Numbered from the stretch's first letter, positions 1 to 5,836 are shown. The stretch is DNA of 6,218 nt from an uncultured archaeon (GCA_964510585.1 CAZECW010000059.1:1-6218); one strand, 5' to 3'. Made by a program: numbers and translations. The notes: generated by a model from the letters alone, not told the origin.

Positions 1-47
1 CTATTATTACTTACGATGAAGCAACACTCCAACCTTTCGGTTAAAAT

Positions 48-68
48 TGCACAAAAGACTTTTTACGC
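48..68 (+). promoter_or_regulatory. Archaeal BRE/TATA promoter, copy 1 (TGCACAAAAGACTTTTTACGC)
   Basis: 19/21 identical to 544-564, which lies directly upstream of the corrinoid gene; purine-rich BRE-like AAAAGAC followed by TTTTTA. Confidence 0.55.
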
Positions 69-80
69 CCATATTATTTT

Positions 81-515
81 ATGTATATAGATATAGCCAA
101 GAACATCACCGAGAGAGAGATAAAATCCTACGCGGACCTGAGAAGAAAGACTCCCTGCCACCGGTCGCCCACCTCAGCTGAGGCAGACGCTGACCTCCTC
201 TCCTACTCAACCACCTGGAAGAAGGCCGACCTAGGCCCCCATTAACTCCACCGGTTGCTGGCCAGAGGTATGTGGAAAACAGTGCACCGGCGAATTGAGA
301 TGGCATTCAGAAAGCCGCCCCTCACACTGCCACAGAGCACACGACAAATGTTTGAGGCGGCCACCACAGCCTAAGAGACTGGGAAGGTTGGGCGGAAGGA
401 GGAACCGCGCCTCAACATAGAATCTGAGGAATCGCCGCCCAAAAAAAGGTGCTTGGAAGGCTCAATGGGGCAGATAAATACTACCACAGCGAGTCTTAAA
501 GAAGGAAACGCATGA
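81..515 (+). other. Unassigned GC-rich segment: decayed gene or structured RNA
   Basis: ATG at 81 opens 54 codons (MYIDIAKNITEREIKSYADL...) to TAA 243-245; the same frame has further stops at 372-374 and 513-515. Visibly more GC-rich than the flanking intergenic DNA, with several stems. No family recognised. Confidence 0.25.
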
Positions 516-543
516 AAGATAGATGGCACCCCACCCCAAAAAA

Positions 544-564
544 TGCATAAAAGACTTTTTAAGC
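544..564 (+). promoter_or_regulatory. Archaeal BRE/TATA promoter of the corrinoid operon (TGCATAAAAGACTTTTTAAGC)
   Basis: TTTTTAAG at 556-563 preceded by AAAAGAC; ATG at 586 is 30 nt from the first T and has no SD, as expected for a leaderless transcript. Confidence 0.7.
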
Positions 565-585
565 ACTATACTCATATTGAGTCTT

Positions 586-1242
586 ATGTTAAAAGAAGAA
601 ATTTTAGAAGGGTTAAAGAAGTCGGTGATTGAGGGCAATCCGGAAGCAACCAAAAAATATGCAAAAGAAGCGGTGAAGAATAAGATTTCAGCCTACGAAG
701 CTGTTATGGACGGCATGTCTGCCGGTATGAAGGTTGTAGGCGAAAAGTTTGAGAACAAGGAATACTATGTCAGCGATCTGATTATGGCCGGGGAGGCTAT
801 GAAGGCCGGTTTGGAGATTCTTGAACCAGCTCTGAAGGCGGAGAAGGCAAAGTCTGTCGGTAGGGTGGTAATCGGAGTGGTAGAGGGAGACGTTCATGAT
901 ATTGGTAAGAATCTTGTTGTGGCTATGCTGAGAGGGGCGGGATTCGAGGTTCACGACTTGGGAATCGATGTCGCTGCTGATAAGTTTGTAAAGACAGCGA
1001 AGGAGGTTAAACCGGATATTGTGGCTGCTTCGGCCTACACGTCTACTTCTATGCCTCATCTGAGAAACATTTTGACTGAATTAAAAAAGTCCGGTTTAAA
1101 GGATACTGTTGCCTACATGATTGGAGGAGCTCCAACTACTGAAGACTGGGCGGTTTCTATTGGAGCTGACGGCTGGGCTGGGGATGCTTTAGAGGCGGTG
1201 AGTGTTGCGTCGGAATTGGTTAAGAAGATGAGAGGTAGTTAA
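586..1242 (+). CDS. Cobalamin-binding corrinoid protein of a methyltransferase system (MtaC/MtbC/MttC-like), 218 aa
   Basis: N-terminal cap (GMSAGMKVVGEKFENKEYYVSDLIMAGEAM), base-off/His-on motif GDVHDIGKNLV, then DLGIDV, SAYTSTSM and MIGGAP. Start moved from 523 to 586 because codons 1-21 of the ORF track run through the promoter. Confidence 0.95.
   Translation: MLKEEILEGLKKSVIEGNPEATKKYAKEAVKNKISAYEAVMDGMSAGMKVVGEKFENKEYYVSDLIMAGEAMKAGLEILEPALKAEKAKSVGRVVIGVVEGDVHDIGKNLVVAMLRGAGFEVHDLGIDVAADKFVKTAKEVKPDIVAASAYTSTSMPHLRNILTELKKSGLKDTVAYMIGGAPTTEDWAVSIGADGWAGDALEAVSVASELVKKMRGS
1232..1236 (+). promoter_or_regulatory. Shine-Dalgarno site (GAGGT) for the 1244 start
   Basis: Lies in the last codons of the corrinoid gene, 7 nt before ATG 1244; the genes are 1 nt apart, implying translational coupling. 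Confidence 0.6.
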
Positions 1243-1243
1243 A

Positions 1244-2404
1244 ATGAGCTGGAGAGAGAAAATAATAGACAAGGAAATTGATTTCATCGTGGAGAAAATC
1301 AGGTTGATGGTTGCGGAGGAAAAGATGACTCCGCTGGAACGATTCGCAAGCCTCGCAACCAAAGAGGAGCCTGACCGCCTGCCGATTTTTGCGGCGTCGA
1401 ATGAGTGGGCGGCTCACTACATAGGATACCAACTTAACAAGGATTTCGCGTTTGATCCCAAAAAATGGGTACACTGCGCACTCAAATTCTTGGAAAGAGT
1501 AGGCTCCGATATCTGTCTGCCCATCTATGATATCTATAATATTGGTCCCGACGCTATGGGTGCAAAGGTCATATTCCCCGAGGATGCCATACCAGAAATA
1601 AGGGAGCCCGCAGTTAAAACTCCTGACGACCTAAAGAATTTGAAAGTTCCAGACCCGCACAAAGAGGGGAGAATGCCACTACTAATAGAGGCACTCAAAA
1701 CGCTGAGATCTAAAATTGGTGACATCATCCCAATATACACTATTATTATGGGGCCCTTCTCATGGGCTGCGAATCTACGTGGGATCTATAATTTCCTTGC
1801 AGATCTGAAAAGGAACCCAAAATTTGCTCTGGACCTTTTAGACATCGTAGCGGACGCGGTTATAAAATACACAAAGGCACTGAATGACTTGGGATTCGCC
1901 CCGGTGGCTCTTGCAGATGTAGTGGCAAGCAGCTACCTCCTTTCACCGAAACAATTCGACGATTTCGTAATACCTCCCTACATGAAAATTCAGGAAGCTT
2001 TGGGTAGAGAAACCTTCATTCCCGGCGCAATCGGCGACTATGACACGCAAGCAAAAATGTTTCAATCCGGTATAGGTTCATCCTTCAATGTCCTGGGCAT
2101 AAATAACTATACCTACTGCGATAGAACTGGTACCGAGCCACTAAAAGAAGAAGACTTAGTTAAGGGGAAAACGATGGCAAAGAAGCTGGGAACATCCTTC
2201 ATGGCAAACATCTGGGGTCAATGGGTGCAGGTTCACAGCCCCCGAGAAATAGACGAGGAAGTAAAGAGAGTAATCAAAATTGTTGGACCCGAATGGCCCT
2301 TCATGGTTGGATTATGGTACGTCCCACTCGGCACACCCGTTGAAAACTTGGATGCCTTTATCCGCGCTGTCAAAAAGTATGGAAAGTTCCCAATAAAACT
2401 CTAA
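1244..2404 (+). CDS. Uroporphyrinogen-decarboxylase-fold (URO-D/MtaA/CmuA family) corrinoid-dependent methyltransferase-like protein, 386 aa
   Basis: Family-typical segments MTPLERF...EEPDRLP, AMGAKVIF, PDPHKEGRMP, GPFSWAANLRG, LLSPKQFDDFVIPPY, TPVENLDAFIRAVKKYG; coupled to a corrinoid gene. Lacks the HemE RQAGR motif and the MtaA HxC...C zinc ligands, so substrate and direction are unassigned. Confidence 0.85.
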   Translation: MSWREKIIDKEIDFIVEKIRLMVAEEKMTPLERFASLATKEEPDRLPIFAASNEWAAHYIGYQLNKDFAFDPKKWVHCALKFLERVGSDICLPIYDIYNIGPDAMGAKVIFPEDAIPEIREPAVKTPDDLKNLKVPDPHKEGRMPLLIEALKTLRSKIGDIIPIYTIIMGPFSWAANLRGIYNFLADLKRNPKFALDLLDIVADAVIKYTKALNDLGFAPVALADVVASSYLLSPKQFDDFVIPPYMKIQEALGRETFIPGAIGDYDTQAKMFQSGIGSSFNVLGINNYTYCDRTGTEPLKEEDLVKGKTMAKKLGTSFMANIWGQWVQVHSPREIDEEVKRVIKIVGPEWPFMVGLWYVPLGTPVENLDAFIRAVKKYGKFPIKL

Positions 2405-2405
2405 A

Positions 2406-2427
2406 TTCTCCTTTTTTTATTTGTTTC
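2406..2427 (+). terminator. Archaeal oligo-T terminator
   Basis: T7 run at 2412-2418 within a pyrimidine-rich tract immediately after stop 2402-2404. Confidence 0.65.
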
Positions 2428-2880: not shown

Positions 2881-2995
2881 CTCTCCCACGTGGCTGTCCA
2901 CCGAAGTTGCATAATTATCATCTAGAAAATACTGCTACCAATACCATTTTTTTAAACACATACTTTGTTTCCAAATGCTGATATTGTGAGAAAAG

Positions 2996-3029
2996 TTAAT
3001 AAAAATGTGAATTTTATTACTATTGGTGA
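2996..3029 (+). promoter_or_regulatory. Promoter/operator and SD of the RHH-protease pair
   Basis: TATA-like TTAATAAA 2996-3003; inverted repeat TAATAAAA (2997-3004) / TTTTATTA (3012-3019); SD GGTGA 3025-3029, 4 nt before ATG 3034. Confidence 0.5.
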
Positions 3030-3033
3030 AAAA

Positions 3034-3303
3034 ATGAAGAGATTCTCTATTAGTCTACCCGATGATGTGGTTGAAGCCCTAGAGAAAATTTTAGAATCGG
3101 AACCCACCGCCTCCAGATCAAAAATTATTGCGGATTCACTTACAGAATACATAGCGAGGCATCACCCATTTCTCCTTAGCCGAGGGGAGAATTCTAGGGG
3201 TCCACGGGTTTTGCGAGAACTTAAAGCCACCCTACGTAGAGCCCCCTCTCCCCGAAGAAGAAAGCTACAGCGAATCCTAGAAGGATGGAAAAGAATTGAT
3301 TGA
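3034..3303 (+). CDS. Ribbon-helix-helix (CopG/NikR-N-like) DNA-binding protein with basic C-terminal tail, 89 aa
   Basis: MKRFSISLPDDVVEALEKIL...SRSKIIADSLTEYI fits the RHH strand-helix-helix pattern. ATG 3034 has a GGTGA SD, so it is preferred over TTG 2965. Confidence 0.8.
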   Translation: MKRFSISLPDDVVEALEKILESEPTASRSKIIADSLTEYIARHHPFLLSRGENSRGPRVLRELKATLRRAPSPRRRKLQRILEGWKRID

Positions 3304-3727
3304 AGTAGTCTACAAATATGTAGAGGACGGAGTGGGCAGAACAGGAAAGAAAATACCAGACCTCCCCGTAGCTTGGATAATACTTTACAGGAAAAAAGAA
3401 AACAGGAAAATGCTGGGCCCCTGCATTATTGACACAGGTTTTGATGGGGGCATATACGCTAACGCTCAACTCTCCTTGAACTTTGAAGGAATACCCCCCG
3501 AAGGAACAGAATGGTTTTACGGCGCAGGAGACCACGAAATTGAATGCGACATTTACAGTGCCGAGTGCCTCCTCCTGAGCGGAGAGAAAACTGTGCCCCT
3601 AGGCACAGTAACAATCTACATACCAGTAAGATTAGAAGACCTCCCCGAAGAAACAATAATGGGACGCGAAGTATTAAACAGCCTCTTATTAACTTTAGAT
3701 GGGAAAAACCTCAAAATAGGTTTATGA
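3296..3727 (+). CDS. Retropepsin-like (clan AA) single-domain aspartic protease, 143 aa
   Basis: Catalytic IIDTGFDG (Asp46, nt 3431), flap-like FYGAGD, C-terminal IMGREVL matching the hydrophobic-hydrophobic-G-R motif; TTG start overlaps the RHH gene by 8 nt. Confidence 0.85.
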   Translation: MIEVVYKYVEDGVGRTGKKIPDLPVAWIILYRKKENRKMLGPCIIDTGFDGGIYANAQLSLNFEGIPPEGTEWFYGAGDHEIECDIYSAECLLLSGEKTVPLGTVTIYIPVRLEDLPEETIMGREVLNSLLLTLDGKNLKIGL

Positions 3728-4104: not shown

Positions 4105-4539
4105 ATGGTGGCTAACTACTTTTTTGATACCGGATTCCTTACCTTGGCGATTACCAACCGTCTACTTGAAAAATGGATACGTCCATGGAAAGAAGTAAAA
4201 AAGGGACAGAAAATTTGCCATATCATCGAACCCGTTGTAGCAGAAACCTATTATCAATTAATGGGAGAGGGCATAGACAAGGAAGGAGCAAAAATTCGCA
4301 TCATACAGTTAAAAGCCATAAATCACATGAGTATTTCTAAGCTAGACGATAATGATTCTTTCAGAGCAGCCCATCATCACACTCAATTTAGGAAGCTCGG
4401 ACTCTCCTTAGTGGACTGCTTCATACTTGCCGTTGCAGCCAGACACAAACTTAAAGTATACACAACCGATCACCCCTTAAAAAACGCAGTAAAAAGAATA
4501 AACGTCCCCTGTGACTATCTCCCAGTCTCAACACTATAA
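4105..4539 (+). CDS. vapC: PIN-domain ribonuclease toxin (VapC family), 144 aa
   Basis: Four acidic active-site positions intact: FFD8TG, VAE47T, LSLVD104CFIL, YTTD122HPL; length typical of VapC. Confidence 0.88.
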   Translation: MVANYFFDTGFLTLAITNRLLEKWIRPWKEVKKGQKICHIIEPVVAETYYQLMGEGIDKEGAKIRIIQLKAINHMSISKLDDNDSFRAAHHHTQFRKLGLSLVDCFILAVAARHKLKVYTTDHPLKNAVKRINVPCDYLPVSTL

Positions 4540-4883
4540 AGACGCTAATAATAAAAAATCTCTATTAAACAATCTCAGAAAGCGCAAAAATCATACTCCA
4601 CAAACTAAACTCCCCCCACATAGGTATAACAACCCGGTAGCGAATCAATCTTTAAGCAAGCCCACAATCCAATTAAACGCACAACCGAATAATCTTCAGA
4701 AACCACACCGGATTTCACCATTCAACACAAGTGAAAAGCCTTGGCGCGGATACTTAAACTGGATTAAGATTTTTAACTTCGCCTTCCAATATTTATGTTA
4801 GGATGGTGACTAAAATAGCGAAAAAGGGCTAGTGGCAAACCGAGCAAAGTTCCGAGCCAAAAATCTGAAGATACCCGCATTAG

Positions 4884-5579
4884 GCAAAAAAATCGAATAT
4901 TTCCGCCACTGAAAAGTACAAAAATTGCTCCATTTGCCGCAAAATCCCCCCCATAGTTTCAGAATTTCGGAAAGGAGGCAAACCGCGAAGCGGTGTAATC
5001 TACGAGGCGGAAAAAAAGTTGGAAGTGGTAGGCAGCCCCTACTATAACGACTCCACTTCACACGATAACAGTTGTATCAAACGCTGCCCCGAGTGTGGCA
5101 CAGTGTACCTTTGGAAATTCAAATACGAGTGGTTCGTGGACGGTTCAGAGGACGAAATCACCCTGACCCGCCTAAGCGAGGCTGAAGGACAAAAAGCAGT
5201 ACAGGAAGCTCTCGAAAACGTTAAACAGGCCAAAAAGAAATTTCTGAACGATGCTCAAGCCCACCTCCAAGCAATAGAAAATTCCACCGACCAGCAACAA
5301 ATCAAAAATACAGCCGACTTCTTTTACCATCACCAATTGGTTCACAAGGAGGACATTTCCTTCGCCGTTCCCACACTTGTCAAAGCACTCATCAAACACC
5401 ATCACACCGAACCCAAATGTGACGCTGGTCAAAGCCTCTACTGGGCACTCCTCGAATTCGCCCTCAAAAGCGAAACACATAAACAACAACTACTAGACCT
5501 CCTCCAAACAGTTAATCAGAATGAAAAACCCCCAGAAGTCCAAGAACTCATCCAATACTGCAAACAAACACAAAAATAG
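4884..5579 (+). CDS. Hypothetical zinc-binding protein (CSIC...CPECG, GSEDE) with a helical C-terminus; start uncertain, possibly pseudogenised
   Basis: Frame is open from 4884 to TAG 5577-5579, but the first standard start is TTG 5019, downstream of the CSIC pair (4926-4937); second pair CPEC at 5085-5096. C-terminal AVPTLVKAL is HEAT-repeat-like. Confidence 0.6.
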   Translation, partial: AKKSNISATEKYKNCSICRKIPPIVSEFRKGGKPRSGVIYEAEKKLEVVGSPYYNDSTSHDNSCIKRCPECGTVYLWKFKYEWFVDGSEDEITLTRLSEAEGQKAVQEALENVKQAKKKFLNDAQAHLQAIENSTDQQQIKNTADFFYHHQLVHKEDISFAVPTLVKALIKHHHTEPKCDAGQSLYWALLEFALKSETHKQQLLDLLQTVNQNEKPPEVQELIQYCKQTQK

Positions 5580-5587
5580 CATTCACA

Positions 5588-5593
5588 TTTTTT
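5588..5593 (+). terminator. Possible oligo-T terminator
   Basis: T6 run 8 nt after stop 5577-5579. Confidence 0.35.
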
Positions 5594-5836
5594 CAACGCC
5601 CTTCCCATCTAAAGAAGTACAACACCTTTCTAAGGAATCATTCATTTACACGTTAAACCTATTCTTAAAAACACATCTAAACACAAAAGTTCACAGTGCA
5701 TTTCTTGGAATCTCGGAGCAAATTTGGAGACTGAAGATTCCCCAGAAAAGGTTTAACTTCCAAAAGAAAAGAAACCATACAAAGCCTAGTTACAAAAAGA
5801 GGAGCAAAAATGGGGAAACAAAAAAGCATACAAGAA

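Follow-up and report, generated by a model that had tools for sequence, protein, structure and literature searches.

In anaerobes, the range of methylated compounds that can enter acetogenesis, methanogenesis and related C1 pathways is decided by corrinoid-dependent methyltransferase systems. Such a system requires one methyltransferase on each side of the corrinoid carrier, and the substrate-side components (MT I) set the substrate range of the system. MtaA, MtbA and MtsA activate a thiol via a His-Cys-Cys zinc site. CmuA, a chloromethane:corrinoid methyltransferase, is an MT I in which the methyltransferase domain is fused to a corrinoid domain, and it keeps an HxC...C motif. Enzymes with the uroporphyrinogen decarboxylase (URO-D) fold bind their substrates after the strands of the barrel.

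Members of this fold that function as MT I enzymes and do not contain zinc are already known. CdmB (2026), the chloromethane MT I of A. dehalogenans (structure 9rui), has a URO-D fold and an aromatic cavity and lacks zinc, and extensions between its first three strands form the dimer and substrate channels (PMC13222342). The Moorella O-demethylase MtvB is likewise a zinc-free MT I with the URO-D fold (PMC13222342). According to a rule stated in a preprint for the superfamily, thiol methyltransferases keep the His-Cys-Cys set, whereas oxygen-directed enzymes replace or lose the Cys ligands (PMC10418091). The systems of CdmB, MtvB, OdmB, VdmB and MtoB comprise four parts, which are the MT I, a corrinoid protein, an MT II and an activase.

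The window analyzed here is an entire contig (C59; 6,218 bp) from the genome of an Asgard archaeon (3.78 Mb, 96% complete), and all features given below are on its plus strand. The gene at 1244..2404 encodes a 386-residue methyltransferase with the URO-D/MtaA fold, as judged from domain matches, HMMs and a structural model, and this protein has no zinc triad. The gene is a conserved but uncharacterized variant of a known enzyme type, and it probably encodes the substrate-side MT I of a corrinoid-dependent methyl-transfer pathway.

The corrinoid-protein gene and its downstream neighbor

The gene upstream of the methyltransferase (586..1242) encodes a corrinoid (B12-binding) protein of 218 residues with Pfam B12-binding_2 and B12-binding domains (E 6e-20 and 1e-26, respectively). 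The mechanical open reading frame begins at 523, and the length obtained from the ATG at 586 agrees with the 209-224 residues of most other corrinoid proteins in the same genome. The NCBIfam models pyl_corrinoid, MtgC and MtbC match the protein with about 168-190 bits, each under its own cut-off, and relatives in the PDB are 1y80, MttC (7xcn), MtmC (3ezx) and a D. hafniense protein (4jgi). The gene includes a DxHxxG motif (DVHDIG, 889..906), which is predicted to serve in base-off/His-on binding of cobalamin. The role of this motif in cobalamin binding is established from MetH and from methanogen corrinoid proteins. MtaA, MtbA and MtsA likewise combine a URO-D (beta/alpha)8 TIM barrel with a His-on corrinoid protein that is a distinct polypeptide encoded close by.

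The corrinoid-protein and methyltransferase genes look like a two-gene unit, because the gap between them is only 1 nt, a Shine-Dalgarno-like sequence precedes the second gene, and an oligo-T tract follows it. The stop codon of the corrinoid-protein gene (1240-1242) is separated by a single nucleotide from the methyltransferase start codon (ATG, 1244), a spacing that suggests translational coupling, and on this sequence evidence the two genes are probably coupled. The Shine-Dalgarno-like GAGAGGT (1230..1236) is located 7 nt 5' of the same ATG. The oligo-T tract (T7, T3 and T3; 2412..2426) begins 8 nt past the methyltransferase stop codon, resembles an archaeal terminator and may mark the end of the unit. 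An A/T-rich, BRE/TATA-like element (539..565; ...AAAGACTTTTTAAGC) lies roughly 20-45 nt 5' of the likely start of the corrinoid-protein gene and is a putative promoter. This element is also an 88% copy of 26 nt found at 43-68. In the upstream region (87-538), neither a tRNA nor an Rfam family was identified, and folding tests gave no signal (z-scores of +0.46 and -0.29).

The zinc site, the fold and the candidate pocket

Scripted scans of the 386-residue methyltransferase find cysteines only at positions 78, 91 and 292 and histidines only at 58, 77, 139 and 331. The same scans find no H-x-C motif anywhere in the protein, nor the RQAGR (R.AGR) motif of HemE. The loop after strand beta-5, which in MtaA reads LHICGN and supplies the His and Cys ligands, is PGAIGD (residues 260-265; 2021..2038). 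The end of strand beta-8, which reads PGCG in MtaA (with the distal Cys) and GHG in HemE, is GLWY (residues 356-359; 2309..2320). The sequence-only reading of this DNA had reported both segments, the three cysteines and the missing HxC and RQAGR motifs, and the scripts reproduce each of these observations.

The ligand columns were anchored via a canonical paralogue from the same genome (C90_7785), by using a full-length alignment to M. mazei MtaA (4ay7) that places LHVCGD over LHICGN and TGCEVP over PGCGIA. In MAFFT alignments with this paralogue, the query has G and I at the His and Cys columns, or D and D in the other register, and the distal Cys column holds W or a gap. Non-ligand residues are thus found in all three columns. 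The register of the query at these columns is uncertain by about 4 residues between alignments, which is harmless because segments 254-275 and 345-365 hold no His or Cys.

None of the 18 family members retains the zinc ligands, and the same is true of all 36 representatives sampled from a wider clade. Because the family retains 50 invariant columns, this loss does not reflect the decay of a single gene. The position of W358 is occupied by W, F, M or N across the family, and the residues at the former ligand columns vary freely, which argues against simple substitute ligands at these sites. Canonical paralogues in the same genome retain the zinc triad, and HxC is missing in 11 of the 17 full-length URO-D paralogues, so the absence is real but neither rare nor exceptional in this genome. 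The view, implicit in the sequence-only reading, that missing ligands are very unusual was overstated given these paralogues, the zinc-free enzymes CdmB and MtvB (PMC13222342) and the superfamily rule stated above (PMC10418091).

The Pfam URO-D model spans residues 29-379 (E 4e-45). A superposition on MtaA, which had been suggested as a check, was performed with a model of the methyltransferase alone. The AF2 model, built from the family alignment, has a pLDDT of 92, and among solved structures it agrees best with M. mazei MtaA (4ay7; Z 30.7, rmsd 3.0, 328 residues, 22% identity). The same structure is the closest solved relative by sequence (E 2e-14 for the single sequence and 4e-18 for the profile). 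HemE structures match the model at Z 27-30 and thus have the same fold, and D96 of the query is aligned with the catalytic Asp of the FSDIL motif. A search of the ESM Atlas returned generic URO-D clusters only.

NCBIfam models score well under their cut-offs: MtaA_Meth at 83.3 bits (cut-off 400), MtbA at 72.9 (600), mtaA_cmuA at 97.2 (235.4), PRK06252 at 102.3 (244) and hemE (TIGR01464) at 39.5 (302.95). These matches are partial and extend to residue ~256 for the MtaA-type models, or over ~27-288 when hemE is counted, and no NCBIfam model names the family of this methyltransferase. In comparison with MtaA, the query is without the His-x-Cys and distal Cys zinc site and is likely an MT I rather than an MT II, its C-terminal third (beta-5 to beta-8) is no longer matched by MtaA HMMs, and it has an insertion around residues 288-301 and an extra helix at the N terminus. 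This helical extension (1244..1324, with residues 3-24 helical) is predicted from the AF2 secondary structure and the alignment of paralogues. Residues 1-26 lie outside the shared fold, as the structural alignment with MtaA and HemE starts at residue 27-28, and the helix is common to the zinc-less paralogues encoded on contig C27 (C27-type) and to members of the wider zinc-less clade.

The protein does not appear to be an orthologue of CdmB or MtoB. The profile match to 9rui is marginal (E 8e-4), and the query has 386 residues versus about 420-430 in CdmB-type proteins, whose long insertions between the first strands it does not have. The CdmB-like place in this genome is filled by another paralogue (C62_51901; E 2.4e-89 to 9rui), whose insertions are missing from the query when the two are aligned. 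The query shares an MtaA-like barrel with CmuA, but its methyltransferase and corrinoid protein are encoded by separate genes. A search for longer forms revealed no fused relatives of 677-2000 residues, which is weak evidence.

Conservation was compared across three groups, consisting of the family, other zinc-less proteins and canonical proteins. Twelve residues are invariant or nearly so within the family and differ elsewhere: W55, H58, Y62, E118, W174, Y231, Q269, N288, Y289, W324, W327 and H331 (spanning 1406..2236). According to the AF2 secondary structure, all twelve follow barrel strands. Residues common to all three groups include R33, G106, P117, D129, P171, A175, R179 and D225. Aromatic and hydrogen-bonding residues both occur among the twelve, a combination that is compatible with methyl donors of several types.

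Family members, their gene neighborhoods and the host genome

This small family forms 29 clusters at 90% identity (5.8 billion proteins searched) and three at 50% identity (1.8 billion proteins searched), and the next matches have ~33% identity. The nearest database protein (97% identity) is labelled Candidatus Jordarchaeaceae. Named members derive from Jordarchaeaceae, Lokiarchaeia and Freyarchaeota metagenome-assembled genomes and from Anaerolineae and Chloroflexia bacteria. In a search of 201 Asgard genomes, an orthologue is present only in the window's own genome, and the other matches correspond to the C27-type paralogue. This set includes five other genomes of the same genus in which no true orthologue was found, so the distribution of the family is patchy.

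Phylogenies were constructed by using FastTree (174 rows), IQ-TREE with LG+G4 (85 rows) and LG+C20 PMSF (47 rows). In place of named MtvB, MtoB, OdmB, VdmB, CmuA, MecE, MecC, MtsA or MtpA sequences, two paralogues with matches in the PDB, C90_7785 (4ay7) and C62_51901 (9rui), served as the only anchors. The family is recovered in all three trees with support of 98-99. A larger clade of zinc-less, MtaA-like proteins has an SH-aLRT support of 99 in both IQ-TREE runs, and FastTree recovers it weakly (84, with the fork open). This clade has 36 sampled representatives from Asgard archaea, Bathyarchaeia and bacteria, among them the paralogues C27_40405 and C27_44033 and a Bathyarchaeota protein. The trees separate the clade from CdmB-like proteins, but an AU test does not reject joining the two (p 0.60), and support along the backbone is weak (41-89 across trees). 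In view of these values, an initial placement of the family within canonical MtaA-like proteins was withdrawn. The zinc-less, MtaA-like clade itself is well supported and uncharacterized.

The most informative gene neighborhoods are bacterial. Three loci (L013, L022 and L024) encode orthologues with 49-51% identity, and in each of them a corrinoid-protein gene comes next, followed by the gene for a Pterin_bind methyltransferase. A RACo activase is encoded just downstream in L022 and L024 and upstream in L013. These three loci therefore hold the complete four-part set seen with CdmB and the O-demethylases, whereas the gene in the window adjoins a corrinoid protein only. The Pterin_bind enzyme is closest to the O-demethylase MT II of D. 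hafniense (4o0q/4o1e, E 6e-51), and no MT I of the known substrate-specific MttB or MtaB types was found in the three cassettes. In a further locus (L014), the order is orthologue, corrinoid protein and RACo. L022 also encodes a 679-residue protein in which a zinc-less URO-D domain is joined to a corrinoid domain. This fusion is closest to the C27-type paralogues, a sister zinc-less lineage, and has the domain order of CmuA. Next to one bacterial cassette is a gene for a Crp regulator that carries fused B12-binding domains.

Every locus in which the flanking sequence suffices (L013, L014, L019-L024 and L026) retains a corrinoid-protein partner. Among Asgard loci, the sole conserved order is corrinoid protein followed by methyltransferase. 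No transporter gene recurs beside the cassettes among the loci examined, which leans weakly toward membrane-permeant donors and weakly against charged substrates.

The host genome encodes 17-18 URO-D paralogues and about 15 corrinoid proteins. Nearly all of the paralogues, among them the canonical proteins, have a corrinoid-protein partner, and such pairing alone therefore does not discriminate among functions. The expectation that canonical paralogues would adjoin an MT I failed, as the neighbor of C90_7785 is a sulfatase. Away from the window, the genome has two RACo genes (on contigs C99 and C33) and at least four MtrH homologues, and contig C99 carries a complete cassette of MttB, corrinoid protein, RACo and MtrH. 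Jordarchaeia have been interpreted as users of methyl groups, in which MtrAH feeds an H4MPT Wood-Ljungdahl pathway (PMC9723677).

Candidate roles of the methyltransferase

The bacterial cassettes are the principal evidence on function. Because the pterin enzyme occupies the folate side in these cassettes, the URO-D protein is assigned to the substrate side. The sequence-only reading had offered three alternatives, which were a substrate-side demethylase resembling the aryl-methyl-ether O-demethylases, a metal-independent methyltransferase with a non-thiol acceptor, and an accessory factor for the corrinoid protein. The first of these is supported by the new cassette evidence, in that the orthologues adjoin a corrinoid protein, an MT II and RACo, but this support does not extend to membership in the aryl-ether O-demethylase clade.

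As an MT I, the barrel would dock the Co(I) form of the neighboring corrinoid protein over its C-terminal face, and a pocket made of family-specific residues (W55, H58, Y62, E118, W174, Y231 and others) would position the methyl donor. Co(I) would then attack the methyl group of the donor to yield CH3-Co(III). In this archaeon, a separate MT II of the MtrH type might pass the methyl group to H4MPT, and in bacteria with orthologues the pterin-binding enzyme would pass it to H4folate. Cobalamin oxidized to Co(II) could be repaired by a RACo activase encoded elsewhere in the genome. As the canonical site offers no zinc to act as a Lewis acid, a donor with a good leaving group is probable. By a rough estimate, an aryl methyl ether is the leading single candidate, though well short of an even chance. 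A methyl halide or other small volatile compound and an onium compound (for example, a quaternary amine or sulfonium) are equally placed behind it, and donors of some other kind are together slightly more probable than either of these two.

Several observations weigh against the MT I assignment. Gene order gives no direction of transfer, and the window and other Asgard loci pair the gene only with a corrinoid protein, such that the MT II and activase are presumed to be encoded elsewhere. Also, profile comparisons of the sequences place the family nearer to the MT II enzyme MtaA (E 4e-18) than to CdmB (E 8e-4). The protein could instead act as an MT II that transfers a methyl group from the corrinoid protein in its methylated form onto a non-thiol acceptor, which is a predicted function that we regard as quite unlikely. 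In the bacterial cassettes, this role would have the pterin enzyme load the corrinoid from methyl-H4folate, in a split, MetH-like biosynthetic methylation. Both the closest solved structure (MtaA, 4ay7) and the closest HMMs (the NCBIfam models of MtaA and MtbA) represent MT II enzymes, and the order of the cassettes is compatible with either direction. However, the known acceptors in this branch are thiols, which need the zinc triad that is absent here, and the pterin enzyme most resembles the MT II of a catabolic O-demethylase. The host is also rich in methylotrophy parts (17-18 URO-D proteins, ~15 corrinoid proteins, MtrH and RACo), and Jordarchaeia are read as consumers of methyl groups (PMC9723677). 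A methylcobamide:CoM methyltransferase or a uroporphyrinogen decarboxylase is extremely improbable, even though Pfam URO-D matches the protein and source annotations read 'uroporphyrinogen decarboxylase family protein'. The zinc triad and RQAGR are absent, W358 is at the position of the C-terminal His of HemE, the gene appears coupled to that of a corrinoid protein, and every NCBIfam score is far under its cut-off. These data agree with the sequence-only reading, which had argued against both functions.

Alternately, the enzyme might activate an O-linked methyl donor by using zinc or another metal held by H58, H331 and a carboxylate (E54, E118 or D225). Two histidines and several acidic residues are invariant, are either family-specific or conserved, and follow barrel strands. 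These residues (H58, H331, E54, E118 and D225) might together offer another site for a metal, which counts against a metal-free enzyme. In some O-demethylase MT I enzymes, zinc is present although the His-Cys-Cys set is not (PMC13222342, PMC10418091), and for the vanillate and veratrol O-demethylase MT I enzymes, which contain zinc, substitute ligands have likewise been proposed. However, H331 is ~7 residues beyond the end of strand beta-7, at a position that is an invariant Gly in the other groups and is not a known ligand position, and the former ligand columns show free variation among family members; a metal-dependent mechanism therefore seems unlikely, though worth keeping in mind. It is very improbable that the protein is a non-catalytic partner of the corrinoid protein, such as a scaffold, a cap that protects Co(I) or part of a sensor. 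CdmB has been proposed by its authors to be mainly a substrate-selecting scaffold (PMC13222342), and the Crp regulator with B12-binding domains beside one bacterial cassette would suit a sensor. In contrast, the 50 invariant columns are concentrated at the catalytic face of the barrel, and the layout of the cassettes is that of a complete methyl-transfer system.

Within the favored MT I assignment, it is conceivable, if rather doubtful, that the family and perhaps the whole zinc-less clade form a metal-independent MT I lineage that is separate from the O-demethylase and Cdm enzymes and acts on a substrate class new to the URO-D fold. One possibility for such a class is onium compounds, including quaternary amines and sulfonium compounds such as DMSP, which might be held by a Trp/Tyr cage with carboxylates. 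Another possibility is the O-methylated sugars of polysaccharides, which could be bound by the Trp/Tyr residues together with the Asn, Gln, Glu and His set.

Published accounts of Jordarchaeia describe methylamine-type routes only, despite the 17-18 URO-D methyltransferases in this genome. Assignment of a substrate to this family would add a class of methyl donor to the metabolism of Asgard archaea and Chloroflexi, and the clade could reveal how an MtaA-type barrel works without zinc. With twelve signature residues, the two-gene operon offers a testable way into the large and unassigned complement of methyltransferases in an Asgard archaeon. If the substrate is indeed an onium compound or an O-methylated sugar, the family would represent an unrecognized route by which methyl groups enter the Wood-Ljungdahl pathway in Asgard archaea and Chloroflexi.

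Mobile-element sequence at the start of the contig

The contig begins within a repeat, of which only the last ~70 nucleotides (window 1-70) are present. At least nine copies of this repeat occur in the genome, every one of them terminating in ...AAAGACTTTTTACGCCC. Several copies are located at the ends of contigs (C60, C22, C126, C77, C44, C214 and, twice, C148). The sequence resembles the terminus of an IS- or MITE-like element and is the probable cause of the assembly break at the contig start. A 26-nucleotide piece of the terminus (window 43-68) is found again at 539-564, with 88% identity, just 5' of the start of the corrinoid-protein gene. The promoter-like element of the operon, an A/T-rich stretch resembling BRE/TATA sequences (539-565, forward strand), may be derived from, or common to, the end of the mobile element.

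The two copies of the 26-nucleotide element flank a stretch of 450 nucleotides with ~50% GC (window 87-538). This stretch contains no ORF, no tRNA and no Rfam family above threshold, and a folding signal was absent from both strands.

Downstream genes and a second assembly of the locus

Downstream of the methyltransferase gene, the window encodes an RHH/CopG-type protein (2965-3303), a 143-amino-acid ORF that overlaps it and matches no family (3296-3727), a PIN/VapC-like protein (4105-4539) and a 186-amino-acid ORF that weakly matches GmrSD_N (5019-5579). This set of genes resembles the content of an accessory or mobile region. The same methyltransferase, with 99% identity, is encoded on a metagenome contig of 5163 base pairs (L018, Ga0129299_1011119), on which the downstream gene order apparently matches that of the window. 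Hence there are at least two independent assemblies of the locus.

Related methyltransferases in the host genome

The whole genome carries 17-18 genes of the URO-D family and ~15 corrinoid-protein genes, mostly arranged as adjacent pairs, together with two genes for the corrinoid activase RACo and at least four MtrH homologues. When the URO-D paralogues are aligned, only three show a zinc triad that is canonical or nearly so; it reads H-x-C...C in two and N-x-C...C in the third. One gene, on the reverse strand of contig C62 (51901-53163; locus L027, 2905-4164), encodes a 420-amino-acid protein closely related to CdmB, the chloromethane methyltransferase (E-value 2.4e-89 to PDB 9rui). It adjoins a corrinoid-protein gene and a short MtrH-like fragment with an in-frame TAG. 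The CdmB paper (PMC13222342) describes Asgard homologues from the Sigynarchaeales; the closest database relative of the present genome is labelled Jordarchaeaceae.

Bacterial loci of the family

Orthologues of the zinc-less methyltransferase also occur in bacterial loci. In a Chloroflexia MAG, the orthologue (L014, 4659-5824) is broken over two overlapping frames (4659-5285 and 4760-5824), which makes it either a pseudogene with a frameshift or the product of a faulty assembly. In locus L022, the gene immediately 5' of the orthologue (7862-9901) encodes a 679-amino-acid fusion of a zinc-less URO-D domain to a corrinoid-protein module; the fusion lacks HxC, contains a DIHDLG motif, and has as its nearest relatives the zinc-less archaeal paralogues of the C27 type, such as C27_40405 and C27_44033. 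The Anaerolineae cassette (L013) encodes a 442-amino-acid protein (6610-7938) that combines a cNMP-binding domain, a Crp-type HTH and both B12-binding domains, and this protein may be a corrinoid-sensing transcription factor.
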